Shown here piece by piece: positions 3,118-47,300 of a stretch of DNA of 64,000 bases. Origin of the DNA: a virus (taxonomy: Duplodnaviria > Heunggongvirae > Uroviricota > Caudoviricetes); the IMG/VR virus record IMGVR_UViG_2915331061_000005; one strand, given 5' to 3'. Numbering within the stretch: the first letter of the stretch is position 1; each line of letters begins with the position of its first letter. A program made the position numbers and the translations under genes. The notes under the pieces were generated by a model. The model made no database searches and was not told where the DNA came from. It worked only from the letters and a program-made list of their open reading frames with translations.

Positions 3118-3431
3118 TTCTTGTCACCCCACCTTGCTTTATGGGGTAAGTCCTGGCACGGGCTGCTGCCGATCAAATAATCCGCCACAATTTCGCCATC
3201 TTCTGCCCACTTCATTCCCAGAAAATCCGCAACGCCGAAACTGCCGTCTTCGCAGCAATGCGTTTCTTGTACAAGCGGTTGGTTTTCAAGTTTCTTCAAC
3301 GGCCCAATTCCACTGGCGGTAAACGCCGCATTTGCCGTTGCGGTCCAGGCTGTCTCTTTATCACCAGTTCCGCCGTTGGTGAAGGTCTTCCCGCACAGCC
3401 TGCACCTGAACGTCATGTAGTACCCTTTCAT
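3114..3431 (-). CDS. Zinc-ribbon protein
   Basis: Internal start MKGYYMTFRCRLCGK...; CRLC and HCC motifs. ATGA overlap with the MTase start. Confidence 0.4.
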   Translation of the reverse strand: MKGYYMTFRCRLCGKTFTNGGTGDKETAWTATANAAFTASGIGPLKKLENQPLVQETHCCEDGSFGVADFLGMKWAEDGEIVADYLIGSSPCQDLPHKARWGDKK

Positions 3432-5357: not shown

Positions 5358-5370
5358 GTAGTCGTCTCCC

Positions 5371-5796
5371 TTACGAAGGCAGGCCGTCGTCTGCATCCTG
5401 CGGTCTGCTGCCGGTGCCCGCCCGGTCGTCCACAGCAGCGCCAGAGCAGGTAGCACAGTCACCGAAGCACCCGGTGTTCGTGTTCTCTTTCAGCTTTGCC
5501 ATCGCTTGCGCAATAGCGGTTGCCTTTTCGCCGTGCCACTGGACGCTATGGTCTTTGCCATATTCGATCTCGCTGTTGCGGGCGTTCCATGCATCATCCA
5601 GCATACCGTCCAGCTGGTTCTTCATGTCATCCAGCATCTTAATCGCCCGTTCCTTTTCCGGGCTGGACTGCACGATTACGTCAGCCAGCGCCATAGCCGC
5701 GATCTGTGCGATATCTCCCGCGTGGCCGTCAACCTGAATTTCGACATCATCGCCATCCAGAGCGACAGCCAAATAGGCATCCCATCTTTTCTCCAT
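5371..5796 (-). CDS. Hypothetical protein
   Basis: 141-aa ORF with RBS AAAGGACAAAAG. Confidence 0.45.
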   Translation of the reverse strand: MEKRWDAYLAVALDGDDVEIQVDGHAGDIAQIAAMALADVIVQSSPEKERAIKMLDDMKNQLDGMLDDAWNARNSEIEYGKDHSVQWHGEKATAIAQAMAKLKENTNTGCFGDCATCSGAAVDDRAGTGSRPQDADDGLPS

Positions 5797-40835: not shown

Positions 40836-40886
40836 ATTATTACCCCTTGCTTATTTATTAAATATAATATAGCACAACCCAGCAGA

Positions 40887-41018
40887 CACCGCAACGTGCA
40901 AATTGCACAACACCGCAACGTGCAATTTGTGCAGAACGCCAAAAACACCGCAACGTGCTTGACATGCGACACGTTGCGGTGCTAGAATACAGCCACGGCA
41001 AGCGACACCGCAACGTGC
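40887..41018. repeat. Array of five 13-bp repeats CACCGCAACGTGC (four direct, one inverted) spanning the early promoter
   Basis: Copies at 40887, 40911, 40946, ~40968 (inverted) and 41006. Confidence 0.7.
40959..40988 (+). promoter_or_regulatory. Early promoter (TTGACA, 18 nt, TAGAAT) embedded in the repeat array
   Basis: Consensus -35 and near-consensus -10. One inverted repeat lies in the spacer. Confidence 0.5.
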
Positions 41019-41053: not shown

Positions 41054-41161
41054 ATGAATAAGCACTTTTTCGAGCTGCCAAAAGCCGTCAAGCGTGCCGT
41101 TTGGGCCGCGCTCATGGCTGAATGGGCAAAGAAAAAAGCCGCCAACCGCACCACCGGTTGA
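41054..41161 (+). CDS. Small basic protein (35 aa)
   Basis: RBS GAAAGGAGAAAAG, first gene of the early operon. Confidence 0.35.
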   Translation: MNKHFFELPKAVKRAVWAALMAEWAKKKAANRTTG

Positions 41162-41321
41162 CAGCTCGCAAGATGGGATTTGAACAGCTCATCTTGCAAT
41201 GATTTTACCAGTTTTCGCCGGTAAAGTCAAGCGGACACTTTGCAAGGGCTGCACCGCTCAACAAAGCAACCCATGCCCACCACCCCGCCGGGGTGATTCA
41301 AAAGAAAAGAGGTTTTGAAGT

Positions 41322-41711
41322 ATGACCACATTCGACCGCAAAATAAACCAGATCGCCGCCCGCCACGGGTGGAGCATCGAGAAACAGCCCCGCGCCGCTG
41401 TCCCTTGCTACATCATCGCCGCCCCAACTTATGAGGATACCGGGAAGATCGTTGCCGTTCTGAACCGCTGCAAGGGCTTGCACCATGAAACATTGACCCC
41501 GATTCACTATGAATCGTGGGCGGTCAAGGTGTATGACGCCGGACAGATCGCCGCATATCGGGAACGCGAACGGCAAAAAGCCGCCCTTGTTGATGCTTTC
41601 TATATGGCATTGAAAGCCAACGGCGGCGACCAGAACGCCGCGAAAGCTGCCCAGCGTGAAAAGGCGGTGCAATGGAACGCCGTCGAAGTGTTCAATGAAA
41701 TTTACGCATGA
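41322..41711 (+). CDS. Hypothetical early protein
   Basis: 129-aa ORF with RBS. Confidence 0.45.
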   Translation: MTTFDRKINQIAARHGWSIEKQPRAAVPCYIIAAPTYEDTGKIVAVLNRCKGLHHETLTPIHYESWAVKVYDAGQIAAYRERERQKAALVDAFYMALKANGGDQNAAKAAQREKAVQWNAVEVFNEIYA

Positions 41712-41824
41712 CCCCCGGATACCTTGACGGGCCGCACCACGAAAAGCGACCCGATCCCACGCCCCGACAATAGCCGGGGAAAAGCACGAAAAGCCACACC
41801 ACGAAACGAAAAGGAGAAACAACC

Positions 41825-42169
41825 ATGAAACGAATTTTGACCGCCGCCGCACTTTCCGCCGCGCTGCTGTCCAGCGCACCCCGCGCCGCTGCCGCCTGTC
41901 CCTACAAAGTCGGCCCTTTGGGGCGGTATATCGCCCCGGCCATTGTGCAGGGCATGACCGCCACCGACGACGGGAACGCCGTTGAAGTCTGGTGCACCGA
42001 CGCGCTGGACGGTGACGACTGGTTTTTTACCGTGGACAACGAAACCGAATTGAAGATTTACAGCCGTGTAAATCTGGTGATCGACGCCAACGGCACCCCG
42101 GACGACTTCACCGACGACCGCGTTATTGATGCCCTGTATTGTCACGATTGCGACGGGATCGACGATTGA
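41825..42169 (+). CDS. Secreted small protein (signal peptide, Asp-rich)
   Basis: MKRILTAAALSAALLSSAPRAAAA signal peptide. Confidence 0.5.
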   Translation: MKRILTAAALSAALLSSAPRAAAACPYKVGPLGRYIAPAIVQGMTATDDGNAVEVWCTDALDGDDWFFTVDNETELKIYSRVNLVIDANGTPDDFTDDRVIDALYCHDCDGIDD

Positions 42170-42187
42170 ACGAAAGGAGCGCACAAC

Positions 42188-42400
42188 ATGAAAACCCTTG
42201 AAGAAATCCGCAACGAATGCCGCAACGAAAACCACGCCGCCCGCCGCCTGTTGTCCGCCGGGTTCCGGCTTGAGGGGTGGGACATGAACACGGGGCGGCG
42301 GATCGTCGCCCGCATCACGAACGAGAACACGAACGACGAACAGCGCGCGTTCTACGAGTTTCCCGACTATCAAACCGCCGCCGCTGAACTTCTCGCATGA
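42188..42400 (+). CDS. Hypothetical early protein
   Basis: 70 aa with RBS GAAAGGAG. Confidence 0.4.
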   Translation: MKTLEEIRNECRNENHAARRLLSAGFRLEGWDMNTGRRIVARITNENTNDEQRAFYEFPDYQTAAAELLA

Positions 42401-42504
42401 TCCCCGCCGGATACCTTGACGGGCCGCACCGAAAAGCGACCCGATCCCATCCACCCGGCCCCGCCGGGAAGAACCACAACAAAAATTGAAAGGAAGTATT
42501 TACC

Positions 42505-43446
42505 ATGACGAACAATCAGATCATCCGCAACGAAGCCGCCCGGCTTGACCCTGCCACCCTGCACGCCATCGCCACCGCGCACCACACCCCGGACGAGATC
42601 GCCGCCATTGCCGCCGCTTGCAAGACCACCGACGAGAACGGCAACGAACAGCCCGCCACCGTGGCCGATGTCGAAATCATGCTTGCAGCCGACGAGCTGC
42701 ACACGTTCGACCACTGGAAGAAAGAGGGTAAGAGCGTCAAAAAGGGTGAAAAGCATCTTGTTTGCTGCTACCTCTGGAAGTACACCACGAAGCCCAGCAA
42801 AGAGCAGCGAGAAAAAGCAGCGGCAGAGGGCAAGGAAGCGGCCCCCGATCCGCATTACTACCCCACGAAATCGCACCTGTTCAGTTGCTTACAGGTTGAA
42901 AGCAGCAAGCCCGCCCCGGCTGGCCGGTTTGGATCGACCGCTGCAATCATCGAGTATAACAAGAAGCTGGCAGCCGAACGGAAAGCAGCGAAAGCCGCCG
43001 CCGAAAAGGCAAAGGCCGAAGCCGCCGCCCCGATCATCACCGAAGAACACCACGAGTTGCCGGAACTGGTGCACGCCGATCCGCTTCCCACGAAAAAGGC
43101 CACGAAGCGCACCGCCAAAAAGGCCCCGGCAAAGAAAGCCGAAACGAAACCCGCCGGGCCAGACATGGAAGAGTTGAAAAACGCTTTCGTCAAGAACTAT
43201 TCCCGCCTGTACCAGACCGACGACGACCACGAAAGCGGCGAGTTTTACGACGCCGTGGACAAGTTCGACGAAATGAGCGCCAACAATGCCCAGTTTACCG
43301 CCACCGTCCAGAAGTTCAATAAATACATGGGCGACCTTATCAGCAGTGACCGCGAAGCCGCCGCGTTTGTGATGGCCCTTGACGATCTGGAAAAGGCAAA
43401 GACCCCCGAAATGGTTCCCACCGTGCAGCAGCTTTGCTTTGCATAA
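42505..43446 (+). CDS. Hypothetical early protein with Lys/Ala-rich linker
   Basis: 313 aa. Central KAAKAAAEKAKAEAAAP low-complexity linker. Confidence 0.45.
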   Translation: MTNNQIIRNEAARLDPATLHAIATAHHTPDEIAAIAAACKTTDENGNEQPATVADVEIMLAADELHTFDHWKKEGKSVKKGEKHLVCCYLWKYTTKPSKEQREKAAAEGKEAAPDPHYYPTKSHLFSCLQVESSKPAPAGRFGSTAAIIEYNKKLAAERKAAKAAAEKAKAEAAAPIITEEHHELPELVHADPLPTKKATKRTAKKAPAKKAETKPAGPDMEELKNAFVKNYSRLYQTDDDHESGEFYDAVDKFDEMSANNAQFTATVQKFNKYMGDLISSDREAAAFVMALDDLEKAKTPEMVPTVQQLCFA

Positions 43447-43566
43447 CACGAAACGGAGACCCCAGCAGGGCCGCACCGCTCAAAGCGGCCCCGCCCCACT
43501 TCCCACCGGCACCCCGCCGGGGGATCGTCACGAAACACGAAAAACGAAAACAGGAGGCTTGAATTT

Positions 43567-44052
43567 ATGTCTTGCATGATGCTTTCCCCCGCCCACATCG
43601 CCACCGTTGCGCACGGTCTGGCGTACCTGCTCAATCAATCCGAAATGTGCCAGCTTTCCGCCGCCGACGAATTGCGCGACGCTCTGGGCGCTTGCAGATA
43701 CCCGCACGATTTTCTGTATGACGACCGCCGAATCTACCCCGTTCTGTACCGGCACAACGAAGCCGCGTATGAAGGGCGCTATAAGGCAGAGCCGGACGAA
43801 ACCGACGAAGTGCCAGCCATGCCGGACAATGTGCCGCACCTGCTGCACCGTCTGGACTACAACGAGCATTATTTTCTCGATGCTGATTTCTTCAAATTTC
43901 TGAAGCTGCTTGACTGCTACATTTACCAGTGCGAAGAACAGGCCACGGCAGACACGAATTTACAGAAAGCGCTTGTAAAGACTTCAAACCACTTGTACGC
44001 ATTCGCCGCCCAGCAGAATGCAGCATACAACGCCGCGCCGTGGTGCATCTGA
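43567..44052 (+). CDS. Hypothetical early protein
   Basis: 161 aa with RBS CAGGAGG. Confidence 0.45.
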   Translation: MSCMMLSPAHIATVAHGLAYLLNQSEMCQLSAADELRDALGACRYPHDFLYDDRRIYPVLYRHNEAAYEGRYKAEPDETDEVPAMPDNVPHLLHRLDYNEHYFLDADFFKFLKLLDCYIYQCEEQATADTNLQKALVKTSNHLYAFAAQQNAAYNAAPWCI

Positions 44053-44144
44053 TCCGCGCCGGATACCTTGACGGGCCGCACCGTAAAGCGACCCGATCCC
44101 AGCCGAAAGGCACAACACGAAACGCGAAAAGGAGCAAACGAATT

Positions 44145-45065
44145 ATGACAACATACTATCCCATCAACGAAAATCTGGCCCGTGCTTCCCACGATATGCG
44201 CAGCATGAGCACCTATCCGGACGGCTATGCAACCAGAGAATACCGTGCCAGCGTGGACAAAGCCGCCGCTCTGGTCGAAGAAAAGAAGCAGAAAGTCAGC
44301 CCCTACTATCACGAAAAGCTGGACGCGCTTCTTGACAGCTACGCCCGCCGCCTTGCACAGTGGACGGACGACCACAACCGGAACGGCGCAAGCTGCCCCT
44401 CTGTGCTTGTGTGCGGTGCTGGCAACTTCCCGGTGCGGAAGAAGCAGAAGCAGAACGCCCGCGAGGATACGCTTTGGCACGAATATGAAGAAATCGAAGC
44501 CATCTTGACGAAAATCAAGGCGGTTGGCACCGGCCCCGTTGATCTGGCCGACCCCCACGCCCGCGAACTGCTCACGGATCAGCTGAACAAAGAGCAAGAC
44601 CTTCTCGAATATTGCAAGGGTGCCAATGCCTATTACCGGAAGCACAAAACCTTGCGCGGCTATTCCAACATGAGCGACGCGGCAGCCGACGCGCTCACCA
44701 ACCCGGACGCCTTTTCAATGAGCCTGTACCGCAAGCCCTACGGCGATTTTGAGTTAACCAGTATCCGCGGCAAGATCAAGCGGATTCAGACCCGCCTTGA
44801 CGAACTCGACAAGGTACAGGCCGCCGCTGCATCCGGCCCCGTTGAAGATCAGCACGACGGCTACACCTACCGTGAGAACAACGAAATCATGCGCGTGCAA
44901 TTCATCTTTCCCGGAAAGCCGGACGACGAAACCCGCGCCATGCTCAAAGAGAACGGTTTCCGGTGGGCACCCAGTCAGGGCGCTTGGCAGCGCCAGCTTA
45001 CCGCAAACGCCAAATATGCAGCGCACCGTGTCATGGAGTTTCTGGACGGCAACGAAAACGAATAA
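44145..45065 (+). CDS. Hypothetical early protein
   Basis: Internal start MTTYYPINEN (RBS AAAGGAGCAAACG) of ORF 43929..45065. Confidence 0.45.
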   Translation: MTTYYPINENLARASHDMRSMSTYPDGYATREYRASVDKAAALVEEKKQKVSPYYHEKLDALLDSYARRLAQWTDDHNRNGASCPSVLVCGAGNFPVRKKQKQNAREDTLWHEYEEIEAILTKIKAVGTGPVDLADPHARELLTDQLNKEQDLLEYCKGANAYYRKHKTLRGYSNMSDAAADALTNPDAFSMSLYRKPYGDFELTSIRGKIKRIQTRLDELDKVQAAAASGPVEDQHDGYTYRENNEIMRVQFIFPGKPDDETRAMLKENGFRWAPSQGAWQRQLTANAKYAAHRVMEFLDGNENE

Positions 45066-45171
45066 TAAAAGCGGACACCCCAGCAGGGCCGCACCGATTC
45101 AAAGCGGCCCCGCCCCATCTTCCCGGCATAAATGTCGGGAACATCACGAAAACGAAAAGGAGCTATGAACC

Positions 45172-45429
45172 ATGACAGCCAAACAGCAAAGCACCGAATC
45201 CGGCGGCGGTCTGCGCACCGTCACCCTCACCGCTGACCAGTGGAACACCCTGTATTTCTACCTTCTCACTTCCACGAAGTACCGCAACGGTGAAATTGAA
45301 GCGTGGGAAAGGCTGGCCCTTGAAACGAACGAGGACGGTTCCCCAAAGTTCATCCACGCCGCCGACAATGCGCGTTATCTCCGGGATCAGGAAAAGACGC
45401 TGCACGAAATTGCGCAAAGCATCTGCTAA
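45172..45429 (+). CDS. Hypothetical early protein
   Basis: 85 aa with RBS AAAGGAGC. Confidence 0.4.
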   Translation: MTAKQQSTESGGGLRTVTLTADQWNTLYFYLLTSTKYRNGEIEAWERLALETNEDGSPKFIHAADNARYLRDQEKTLHEIAQSIC

Positions 45430-45532
45430 CAGACCGCTCCGCCGGGGAAAATAGGAGAATTGACTTCATTTTGTAGTCGGTTGAATGCCGATCCACTGCC
45501 CCGCCGGGGTGAATCACGAAAGGACGAAACGA

Positions 45533-45721
45533 ATGTACTACTTCATTTACTGCAAAGGCCCCAACGAAAAGCGCTTCACGCTTTGCAATCCATGGAAAGG
45601 CACACGCGGCATGGGCAAAGTATATGCGCCGCGCTTCCTCAAGGATCAAGCCGACTATGCCGTTGCATGGATGGCCGAGCACAACCCCGGCTTTATCTTC
45701 CAGCGCCGCCCGGCACGCTGA
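45533..45721 (+). CDS. Small hypothetical protein
   Basis: 62 aa, internal start MYYFIYCKG. Confidence 0.3.
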   Translation: MYYFIYCKGPNEKRFTLCNPWKGTRGMGKVYAPRFLKDQADYAVAWMAEHNPGFIFQRRPAR

Positions 45722-45752
45722 ACATCACCACCACGAAAAGGAGCAACGAACC

Positions 45753-46070
45753 ATGACAACCAACGAACGCTTTCTCTCAGTCCTGCACAGGATCACTTCC
45801 TGCCGCCACTTAGCCACCGTCAACATAACGATCTGGAACAGACGCATTGAAGTCCGGCACACCGTTTTCGATGAAATGTACATCCTGCGCAGCTTTCCCC
45901 TGCCCAACACCCACAACGAATATTGCGTCTGCATGGCGGCTGCCTGCCGGTGTCTGTCCGACAAGCTGCTTTCGTGGGCAAGCGAGTACGACCACGGCAA
46001 CGACGTTCTGAACAAGCAGTACGACACTGTGAACAAAGCCTTTCGCAAGCGCTTAGAGGAACAAGAATGA
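45753..46070 (+). CDS. Hypothetical Cys-containing protein
   Basis: Internal start MTTNERFLSV with RBS AAAGGAGCAACG. Confidence 0.4.
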   Translation: MTTNERFLSVLHRITSCRHLATVNITIWNRRIEVRHTVFDEMYILRSFPLPNTHNEYCVCMAAACRCLSDKLLSWASEYDHGNDVLNKQYDTVNKAFRKRLEEQE

Positions 46071-46293
46071 CCCGTGCCCCGGTTCCATGCCGGGGCATCT
46101 TGTGATATACTTTCACTAACGAAATTGGACTTTTCAAGCACGAAAAGTTCAATTCCAGCAACGAATTTGCAAAAAAGGGGGCATTTTTACGAACGAAGTC
46201 GAATTTTTTGCACCTTGGCGTCTGGTTGCCAGTTTTGCCGACGGCACACGCGCCACGTTCGACGGACTGACCGAGGAACAGGCCCACGCCGCA

Positions 46294-46551
46294 ATGGAAG
46301 CTGCCCAGACCGAGCACGGCGACATTGGCTATTGGAACCGTGTCACGGATGTAAACTATGAGGACGGCCAGTATTGCGGCACCCTGCAGGAACCGCCCAC
46401 GGTTCATGTTGTGGATTTTTCCGGGTATGACGGGCCGCTGGACGAAAACGGCTTTCCTGTTGGCCTGCCGAACGAAATCGCCGAGTACATGAAGCAGCAC
46501 GGCGAACCGCCCACCGTTCCGAAAATCATCATCAAGAAAAACGAACCATAA
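46294..46551 (+). CDS. Hypothetical early protein
   Basis: 85-aa ORF, last gene before the terminator. Confidence 0.35.
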   Translation: MEAAQTEHGDIGYWNRVTDVNYEDGQYCGTLQEPPTVHVVDFSGYDGPLDENGFPVGLPNEIAEYMKQHGEPPTVPKIIIKKNEP

Positions 46552-46566
46552 ACGCACGAAATCCCT

Positions 46567-46612
46567 CGACGGAATTACCCGCCGGGGGATTTCTGTTTTT
46601 GACGATTCGCAA
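46567..46612 (+). terminator. Rho-independent terminator ending the early operon
   Basis: GAAATCCC-loop-GGGGATTTC followed by TGTTTTTG. Confidence 0.55.
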
Positions 46613-46799: not shown

Positions 46800-47300
46800 T
46801 TAATCGCGCGCGTCATACGCGCGTGAGAGCAGTTCTTCGACCATCGGGACTTCATCCAGCATGGAACCCAGAACGACCAGCGCGAACTTTTCCCACCGCT
46901 GGGCTGTGATCTCTGTTTTTCTCAGTTCGCGGGCTATGGTTTTCCAGCCTTTTTGTAACGACGGATCACTGTAGACATACCGCCCGCACAGGATCGTTTT
47001 GTAACGACTGTTCAGCCGGTCTAATTGCCCCCGGATTGTTGTCTGATCCGCACGGAGAACATCCTGCCGAACACGAAGTTCATTTTCCCGGCGCTGGCAC
47101 TCCACATCATCGGCCAGTTTCACAGCCAGCGACGCGGTACTATCTCCCGGCGTGCTGCCGTGCGGCATACCGTCCATAGCAATGCCCTTGATGGGATTGT
47201 AGCGATCTCGCAGTTCTGCCAGCTCAATGTTGACATCATCAAGCTGCGCTTCAATCCCGCCAAAGTAGCGCAAAATCATTTTCGTTTCTTCTGCCTGCAT
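46800..47300 (-). CDS. Putative transcriptional regulator with C-terminal sigma-70 region-4-like HTH (possible RinA/ArpU-type late activator)
   Basis: C-terminal GWKTIARELRKTEITAQRWEKFALVVLG resembles a sigma region 4 HTH. Assignment tentative. Confidence 0.3.
   Translation of the reverse strand: MQAEETKMILRYFGGIEAQLDDVNIELAELRDRYNPIKGIAMDGMPHGSTPGDSTASLAVKLADDVECQRRENELRVRQDVLRADQTTIRGQLDRLNSRYKTILCGRYVYSDPSLQKGWKTIARELRKTEITAQRWEKFALVVLGSMLDEVPMVEELLSRAYDARD

Follow-up and report, generated by a model that had tools for sequence, protein, structure and literature searches.

RAGATH-5 modules with a predicted pseudoknot between the genes of a phage operon and their possible role as punctuation of a polycistronic transcript

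Introduction

Why would the short genes of a phage operon be set apart, time after time, by the same compact module? This question is raised by a Caudoviricetes sequence of 64,000 nucleotides (nt), IMG/VR record IMGVR_UViG_2915331061_000005, which was analysed over its full length and is called the window here. A plus-strand block of about ten small genes occupies 40.8-46.8 kb of it, and the spacers between these genes repeatedly carry an element of about 50 nt which, judged by its match to the Rfam model, is RAGATH-5 (RF02685). The original prediction had noticed this repetition and had treated the element as an unnamed module; its observation is real, although partly overstated. Because RAGATH-5 has already been catalogued, finding it here is not a discovery. 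The motif was reportedly described by Weinberg et al. in 2015 (Nat Chem Biol), and a literature search for “RAGATH-5” by name found no paper in the collection searched. The reading favoured in this study is that the modules would serve as sense-strand RNA punctuation of one polycistronic phage transcript, presumably through processing or stability, and a probability of about one half is assigned to it.

Identity of the repeated element

The Rfam scan of the whole window gave exactly six matches above the gathering score, all of them to RF02685 (gathering score 50 bits, model length 53 positions, Rfam type “Gene; ribozyme”) and all on the plus strand. The six copies score 58-68 bits with E-values from 4e-07 to 4e-09, each covers model positions 1-53 of 53, and identity among them is 62-95%. 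They lie at 41231-41286 (copy 1, 58.9 bits), 41715-41766 (copy 2, 61.0 bits), 42407-42456 (copy 3, 65.5 bits), 43453-43505 (copy 4, 68.0 bits), 44059-44108 (copy 5, 58.0 bits), and 45071-45124 (copy 6, 65.3 bits). The copies share the full model, the hairpin, the conserved flanks, and a phage-like, ribozyme-associated neighbourhood with the RAGATH-5 family, and no feature of them excludes membership. At E <= 5, the only other Rfam family matched in the region is a sub-threshold His_leader match, a terminator-like partial, and the window elements resemble no Rfam ribozyme model at that threshold.

A common hairpin element had been proposed for seven spacers. Six of these (at about 41200, 41715, 42405, 43456, 44058, and 45079) do carry it, but the seventh, at about 45490, does not: by the Rfam scan the spacer 45430-45532 has no RAGATH-5 copy, and it consists of a CCCCGCCGGGG hairpin (45499-45509, plus strand) and a leader. 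The repeat search bore out the proposal that three copies share CCGGATACCTTGACGGGCCGCACC (repeat family D1). The further claim that a module precedes every early gene is wrong, because the genes starting at 42188, 45753, and 46294 have none.

A hairpin, a probable pseudoknot, and a proposed triple code

Covariation was assessed in 146 unique aligned cores (alignment A2), to which the column numbers refer. The strand order is CGG, a long loop, the 5' arm of the stem, an A, CCG, a loop ending in an invariant AAA, and the 3' arm of the stem. Stem pair 19-40 covaries (CG 82, UA 54), as does the outer pair 12-47 (GC 99, AU 37, CG 3), and no variation is seen at 22 of about 45 core positions, including unpaired ones. 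Pairing of the 5' CGG (columns 1-3) with the CCG of the loop (columns 23-25) is possible in 98% of cases; two of these three pairs are invariant, and the single variable pair, 1-25, changes in a compensatory way (CG 131, UG 3, GC 2, UA 2, other 8).

A second signal links pyrimidine columns of the 5' flank with purines of the stem in parallel orientation: 8-40 is CG in 82 and UA in 58 cores, and 9-41 is UA in 86 and CG in 55. These two pairs fit in 98% of cells and rank first and third by mutual information; none of 500 shuffles reaches their score, and controls slid along the alignment collapse. What the flank bases at columns 8 and 9 track are the purines of the 3' strand, not the Watson-Crick partners of those purines. 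Four classes result (CU/GA, UU/AA, CC/GG, and UC/AG), each found on several linker backgrounds and in prophages of different genera; for example, copy 1 of the window has flank bases UU with stem purines AA, and copy 4 has CC with GG. Among the IMG/VR matches, columns 40 and 41 are pyrimidines in 0 and 2 cases, respectively, and purines otherwise. Placed on copy 3 by the alignment covariation, the pseudoknot pairs would be C42408-G42431, G42409-C42430, and G42410-C42429, the stem joins G42421-G42423 with C42440-C42442 and C42425-C42427 with G42436-G42438, and the flank pyrimidines C42415 and U42416 would read G42438 and A42439.

In H-type pseudoknots, loop 1 occupies the major groove in the same direction as the 3' strand of stem 2, an arrangement that suits U.A-U and C+.G-C triples, and an A-rich loop 3 packs into the minor groove of a short stem. 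The strand order, the CGG/CCG pairing, and the parallel covariation of flank and purines together point to an H-type pseudoknot fold for RAGATH-5, in which triples would form in the major groove and the third loop is A-rich. Beyond the hairpin in the cmscan structure line we therefore infer a 3-bp pseudoknot and two triples between loop 1 and the stem. The proposed triples are a covariation signal only, and at column 41 the purine often faces a C, a mismatch, in the Watson-Crick position. An antiparallel alternative (9-41 with 10-40) likewise fits, with 98.6% of pairs; however, 10-40 is mostly U.G or U.A and falls outside the 25 highest mutual-information pairs (lowest 0.20), as against 0.73 for 8-40. 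Because of this much weaker coupling, the parallel reading of the covariation is preferred.

Triplex pseudoknots are known from luteovirus frameshifting signals (with a C+.G-C triple), telomerase RNA, and the SAM-II riboswitch. RAGATH-5 resembles them in strand order, in a pyrimidine loop 1 that appears to read stem-2 purines in parallel by a C-G/U-A code, and in an A-rich loop 3 beside a short G-C stem. It differs from them in having no slippery site, frame bias, or ligand-related gene context, and in being reiterated up to seven times per operon. Function on the antisense strand was considered and is less likely: there the long loop would be purine and would go to the minor groove, where a C-G/U-A code is not expected, and the fixed relation of the element to the stop codon and the Shine-Dalgarno (SD) sequence also disfavours it.

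The second hairpin and the A/C-rich leader

Each module is built, in order, of the RAGATH-5 element, usually a GC hairpin (hairpin 2), and an unstructured A/C-rich leader with a strong SD. In 195 of 255 unique leaders the hairpin begins 0-4 nt past the conserved CCA, and it does so in 84 distinct sequences, such as CCCGG/CCGGG, GCCC/GGGC, and the flipped GGGC/GCCC; its median z-score against shuffles is -2.5. The Rfam model closes with CCCc, which is the 5' arm of this hairpin, so that the 53-nt model cuts the hairpin in half. The usual second hairpin and a fixed offset of about 7 nt from the stop codon likewise go beyond the cmscan structure line.

In the window, a GC hairpin follows every RAGATH-5 copy, as had been suggested, but the exact CCCCGCCGGGG occurs in only three of the cited spacers (at 41283, 43512, and 45499, with a one-mismatch copy at 42459), and different GC hairpins take that position in the other spacers. 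All on the plus strand, hairpin 2 lies at 41281-41295 in module 1 (CACCCCGCCGGGGTG), 41762-41779 in module 2 (CCCCGACAATAGCCGGGG), 42454-42468 in module 3 (CCCGGCCCCGCCGGG), 43501-43524 in module 4 (containing CCCCGCCGGGG), 44102-44111 in module 5 (GCCGAAAGGC, weak, 3 bp), and 45120-45141 in module 6 (UUCCCGGCAUAAAUGUCGGGAA, different in sequence with the pairing kept).

From hairpin 2 as far as the SD, the base composition comes to 52% A, 27% C, 12% G, and 8.5% T. For example, the leader of module 2 (41780-41824, plus strand) is A/C-rich with two CACGAAA copies and an AAAGGAG SD before the ATG at 41825, and that of module 4 (43525-43566, plus strand) has the A/C-rich CACGAAACACGAAAAACGAAAAC and an SD before the ATG at 43567. 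The CACGAAA repeats of the original prediction are indeed enriched, with 25 matches in the 64 kb against 12.4 +/- 3.4 expected, 18 of the 25 on the plus strand at 41738-46561; the leaders of copies 1 and 3 nevertheless lack them. CACGAAA is the form that the A/C-rich leader takes in the lineage of Faecalibacterium phage FP_Toutatis, and other A/C strings replace it in related phages.

Placement between genes

By megablast the window is a relative of FP_Toutatis, with 98.4% identity from 42398 onward, and phage Lelie is a second relative; GenBank records of this phage lineage (Toutatis and Lelie) name Faecalibacterium hosts. The homologous operons hold six copies of RAGATH-5 in Toutatis and seven in Lelie (13 in all), and 71 copies were found across 13 viral contigs. 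A pattern scan of IMG/VR listed at least 120 loci; among the matches listed there are at most six per locus, on one strand within each locus. About 44 stretches of GTDB genomes carry the motif, and almost all of these come from Oscillospirales, including Faecalibacterium, Gemmiger, Subdoligranulum, Oscillibacter, Acutalibacter, Flavonifractor, and relatives.

Placement was measured on regex-defined copies, 345-449 in number, from phage contigs and Oscillospirales genomes, where the loci covered amount to about 1-1.6 Mb. The median distance from the stop codon of a same-strand open reading frame (ORF) to the start of the motif is 7 nt. The spacer between stop and pseudoknot peaks at this value (27, 67, 38, and 27 cases for 6, 7, 8, and 9 nt), and lies within 6-9 nt in 159 of 269 unique contexts, with few shorter. 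On the other side, in 302 of 330 cases, a distance of 30-69 nt separates the end of the motif from an SD and start codon. Within the window, the CGG of copy 2 begins 4 nt past the TGA at 41709-41711, and copy 6 follows a tandem stop, TAATAA (45060-45065); copy 1 lies 70 nt past a 35-codon ORF, within the leader of the gene at 41322-41711. Given the size of ribosome footprints, a spacing of about 7 nt roughly keeps a structure just outside a ribosome positioned on the stop codon, and the RAGATH-5 pseudoknot would accordingly lie just clear of a ribosome terminating there.

Such spacing could also suit a translation-level signal, in which a pseudoknot 6-9 nt past the stop modulates termination, readthrough, frameshifting, or reinitiation. 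The 7-nt peak falls in the 5-9 nt range of recoding stimulators, which stand 6-9 nt from the decoded codon; the proposed fold, an H-type pseudoknot with triples, would be suitable; and the weak termination context UGA-C is the commonest (128 of 324). However, the three frames are almost equally represented among the next genes (114/87/123), with no excess of potential fusions, slippery heptamers of the type XXXYYYZ occur in one of 315 contexts as against four of 315 at a control position, and the tandem stops before some copies, such as that before copy 6, do not fit. The twister-sister ribozyme, which occupies the same slot in related arrays, has no known recoding role either. The odds on a translation-level signal are accordingly long. 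Readthrough, fusion, and frameshifting as such were rejected, on the tandem stops, the scarcity of slippery sites, and the absence of any frame bias past the stop, where the upstream reading frame, if extended, is not more open than either of the others.

Twister-sister ribozymes within RAGATH-5 arrays

The Rfam scan found no twister-sister ribozyme in the window. In three related loci, however, a twister-sister ribozyme (79-86 bits) stands inside a RAGATH-5 array on the same strand: at 1664-1746 on the minus strand of L017, 2420-2502 on the plus strand of L020, and 5370-5451 on the plus strand of L048. Its start coincides with the upstream stop codon or lies within 4 nt of it, and 23-33 nt separate its end from the SD and start codon that follow. 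The leaders that follow it are of the RAGATH-5 type in all three loci, and that in L020 is nearly identical to the leader of a neighbouring RAGATH-5 copy. The slot, the strand, and the type of leader are the same, and it follows that either RAGATH-5 or an element proven to cleave RNA can fill this slot; these loci also place the family in the neighbourhood of self-cleaving ribozymes. A phage-like context is common to such small ribozymes (PMC8782182), and bacterial self-cleaving ribozymes have been suggested to process polycistronic transcripts into products differing in stability or translation (PMC6765202). Because twister-sister occupies the same slot, and because of this proposed role of ribozymes in mRNA processing, a punctuation or insulation role is favoured for RAGATH-5.

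RAGATH-5, perhaps together with hairpin 2, might itself be a self-cleaving ribozyme that needs conditions or flanks beyond those of earlier tests, a mildly acidic pH that favours C+ triples being one such condition. The family came out of a search near ribozyme-associated genes and is typed as a ribozyme in Rfam, its fold is compact and appears pseudoknotted, its many invariant positions (22 of about 45) include unpaired ones, its slot is common to twister-sister, and the Rfam model stops within the 5' arm of hairpin 2. On the other hand, the additional RAGATH structures did not cleave experimentally (PMC6765202), no Rfam ribozyme model is resembled in sequence or structure at E <= 5, and hairpin 2 is absent from about a quarter of copies. 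On balance a ribozyme seems unlikely.

One promoter and one terminator

The consensus promoter scan found a single strong sigma-70-like promoter upstream of the array, at 40959-40988 on the plus strand (TTGACA-18-TAGAAT, with TG before the -10 element), and no sigma-70 site (-35 and -10 elements 16-18 nt apart) in any module. The sole other plus-strand promoter-like site is weak and lies at 44145, inside a coding region. No intrinsic terminator was found on the plus strand in the modules, where each of the two hairpins leads into C- or A-rich sequence with no U tract; in the block as a whole there is one weak internal candidate. The unit is closed by an intrinsic terminator at 46558-46600 (plus strand), an 11-bp GC stem followed by UGUUUUU (z = -3.4), which is the terminator part of the sub-threshold His_leader match. 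The whole plus-strand block thus has one promoter and one terminator.

Per-gene internal promoters with TTGACG as a -35 box had been the first proposal for the modules. TTGACG is present in three of the six copies, but no -10 element lies 16-18 nt downstream of it, and TTGAC is one of many variants of the linker (CCAGCA, TTAGCA, CTGGCA, TTCGC, and others). Its TT corresponds to alignment columns 9 and 10, and column 9 is one of those that track the stem purines. The promoter proposal is not supported and must be considered extremely improbable.

Reiteration along one transcription unit might instead reflect a site bound by a factor of the phage or its host, such as an RNA-binding regulator or RNA polymerase, as in put- or nut-like processive antitermination. 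Unpaired nucleotides are strictly conserved, and a homologue of transcription regulators or activators adjoins the array at 46800-47300 on the minus strand; it matches phrog_36 and is annotated as “antiterminator Q” in Toutatis. Bar the one weak candidate, however, there are no internal plus-strand terminators to antiterminate, most of the cargo genes have no Pfam family, and the fixed position relative to stop codons is left unexplained. A binding site is for these reasons quite unlikely, and punctuation of a single transcript remains the preferred reading of the array.

Other signals were seen at the edges of the unit. Four direct 15-mers, (G/A)ACACCGCAACGTGC, at 40885-41018 (family D13, GACACCGCAACGTGC) bracket the promoter at 40959-40988, and what reads by eye as an inverted copy lies in its spacer at about 40969-40985; as an array, the 15-mers resemble operators for a repressor of the RAGATH-5 operon. 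Facing this promoter, a minus-strand promoter-like site (TTGACT-17-TAAAAT with TG, 41230-41202) lies upstream of a minus-strand 76-amino acid ORF and the terminase operon, and about 35 nt past it is a terminator-like hairpin and T run (41167-41136, minus strand). By analogy, the site and hairpin at 41136-41230 resemble the PR'-tR' late-promoter arrangement of lambda. Near the other end, a 223-nt gap (46071-46293) precedes the ATG at 46294, the frame upstream of which is open without a canonical start codon. The gap has a GC hairpin (at about 46076-46098) and a TGnTATACT-like extended -10 element, possibly an internal promoter for the last gene.

Cassette exchange at module edges

Compared with Toutatis, one gene cassette of the window has been swapped, with breakpoints at 42190 (a start codon) and 42398 (a stop codon and the start of RAGATH-5), equivalent to positions 3283 and 4001 of the Toutatis locus (L001). 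The swapped cassette is one 70-amino acid gene in the window versus three genes and an extra RAGATH-5 copy in Toutatis. The gene shuffling that had been suspected is therefore visible, at module edges, and fits as a probable consequence of repeated modules. Breakpoints in these positions may be explained equally by homologous recombination and by a site of the integron attC type.

The modules might accordingly be DNA-level elements with no RNA function, either homologous linkers or folded single-stranded DNA sites for integron- or moron-like cassette exchange. Breakpoints exactly at module edges and the identity among copies would suit this, as would the C.A mismatch of the stem, which is G.T on the other strand. 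Exchange driven by homology, however, neither needs nor explains compensatory changes and a pyrimidine/purine triple code, and the fixed distances to stop codon and SD and the replacement by an RNA ribozyme are left unexplained. A purely DNA-level role is thus very unlikely.

RNA punctuation as the favoured reading

Co-orientation, stereotyped distances to stop codon and SD, compensatory changes, and the presence of a ribozyme in the same slot all argue for a role at the RNA level. A control or processing element reused between cistrons like a cassette, as the original prediction also allowed, is plausible. If the modules do punctuate a polycistronic transcript, the pseudoknot would either mark a site of RNA cleavage or form a barrier or terminal structure of high mechanical stability. 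Through such cleavage, or through the blocking of nucleases, each cistron would then end in a protected 3' pseudoknot structure, the downstream cistron would have a hairpin at its 5' end and an accessible ribosome-binding site, and the stability and translation of neighbouring genes would thereby be uncoupled. This would be the same role that the literature proposes for the self-cleaving ribozymes of that slot.

A more specific version is offered as a tentative possibility. RAGATH-5 might be a triplex-bearing H-type pseudoknot that insulates cistrons, either as an exonuclease- or ribosome-proof barrier or as a protonation-dependent (C+ triple) cleavage module, functionally interchangeable with twister-sister, by which phages of gut Oscillospirales might set the mRNA fate of every gene in an accessory operon separately. 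Known intercistronic mRNA stabilisers and processing sites include repetitive extragenic palindromic (REP) hairpins, the 5' stabiliser hairpins and STAB-SD sequences of Firmicutes, and exonuclease-resistant RNAs (xrRNAs). Like these, the modules lie between cistrons, with a stable structure directly past the stop and a second hairpin before the next leader; there is no sequence relationship.

Several points weigh against punctuation. RAGATH structures other than twister-sister, pistol, and hatchet showed no cleavage in experiments, their function being unknown (PMC6765202). Hairpin 2 is absent from about a quarter to a third of copies. The pseudoknot stem has one variable pair only, and the triple is deduced from covariation alone. 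On the sense strand, 88 of 146 variants have a C.A mismatch at stem position 18-41; because this mismatch would be G.U on the antisense strand, it is by placement, topology, and the A-rich loop that the strand is assigned.

Genes of the block and their neighbours

The ten plus-strand genes of the block lie at 41322-41711, 41825-42169, 42188-42400, 42505-43446, 43567-44052, 44145-45065, 45172-45429, 45533-45721, 45753-46070, and 46294-46551. To their left is a minus-strand phage module with the small and large terminase and the portal, and to their right are minus-strand replication and regulation genes. All ten proteins have nearly full-length PHROGs matches, while in the window and related loci most cargo genes have no Pfam family. 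The product of the gene at 42505-43446 has an ArdC-N-like match (E = 3e-4, below the Pfam cut-off), and a 541-amino acid cargo protein of related loci, which is taken to be a methyltransferase fusion, has a DUF4942 domain. These two matches hint that the arrays may carry anti-restriction or accessory functions. No tRNA or transfer-messenger RNA genes were found.

Significance for RAGATH motifs and phage-borne ribozymes

The locus described here is a convenient test bed, with six copies in one operon under one promoter and close relatives that have a proven ribozyme in the slot, and the pseudoknot with its C-G/U-A triple code is a testable structural model that specifies precise mutations. If RAGATH-5 does insulate cistrons, orphan RAGATH motifs and phage-borne small ribozymes would have a common biological role.

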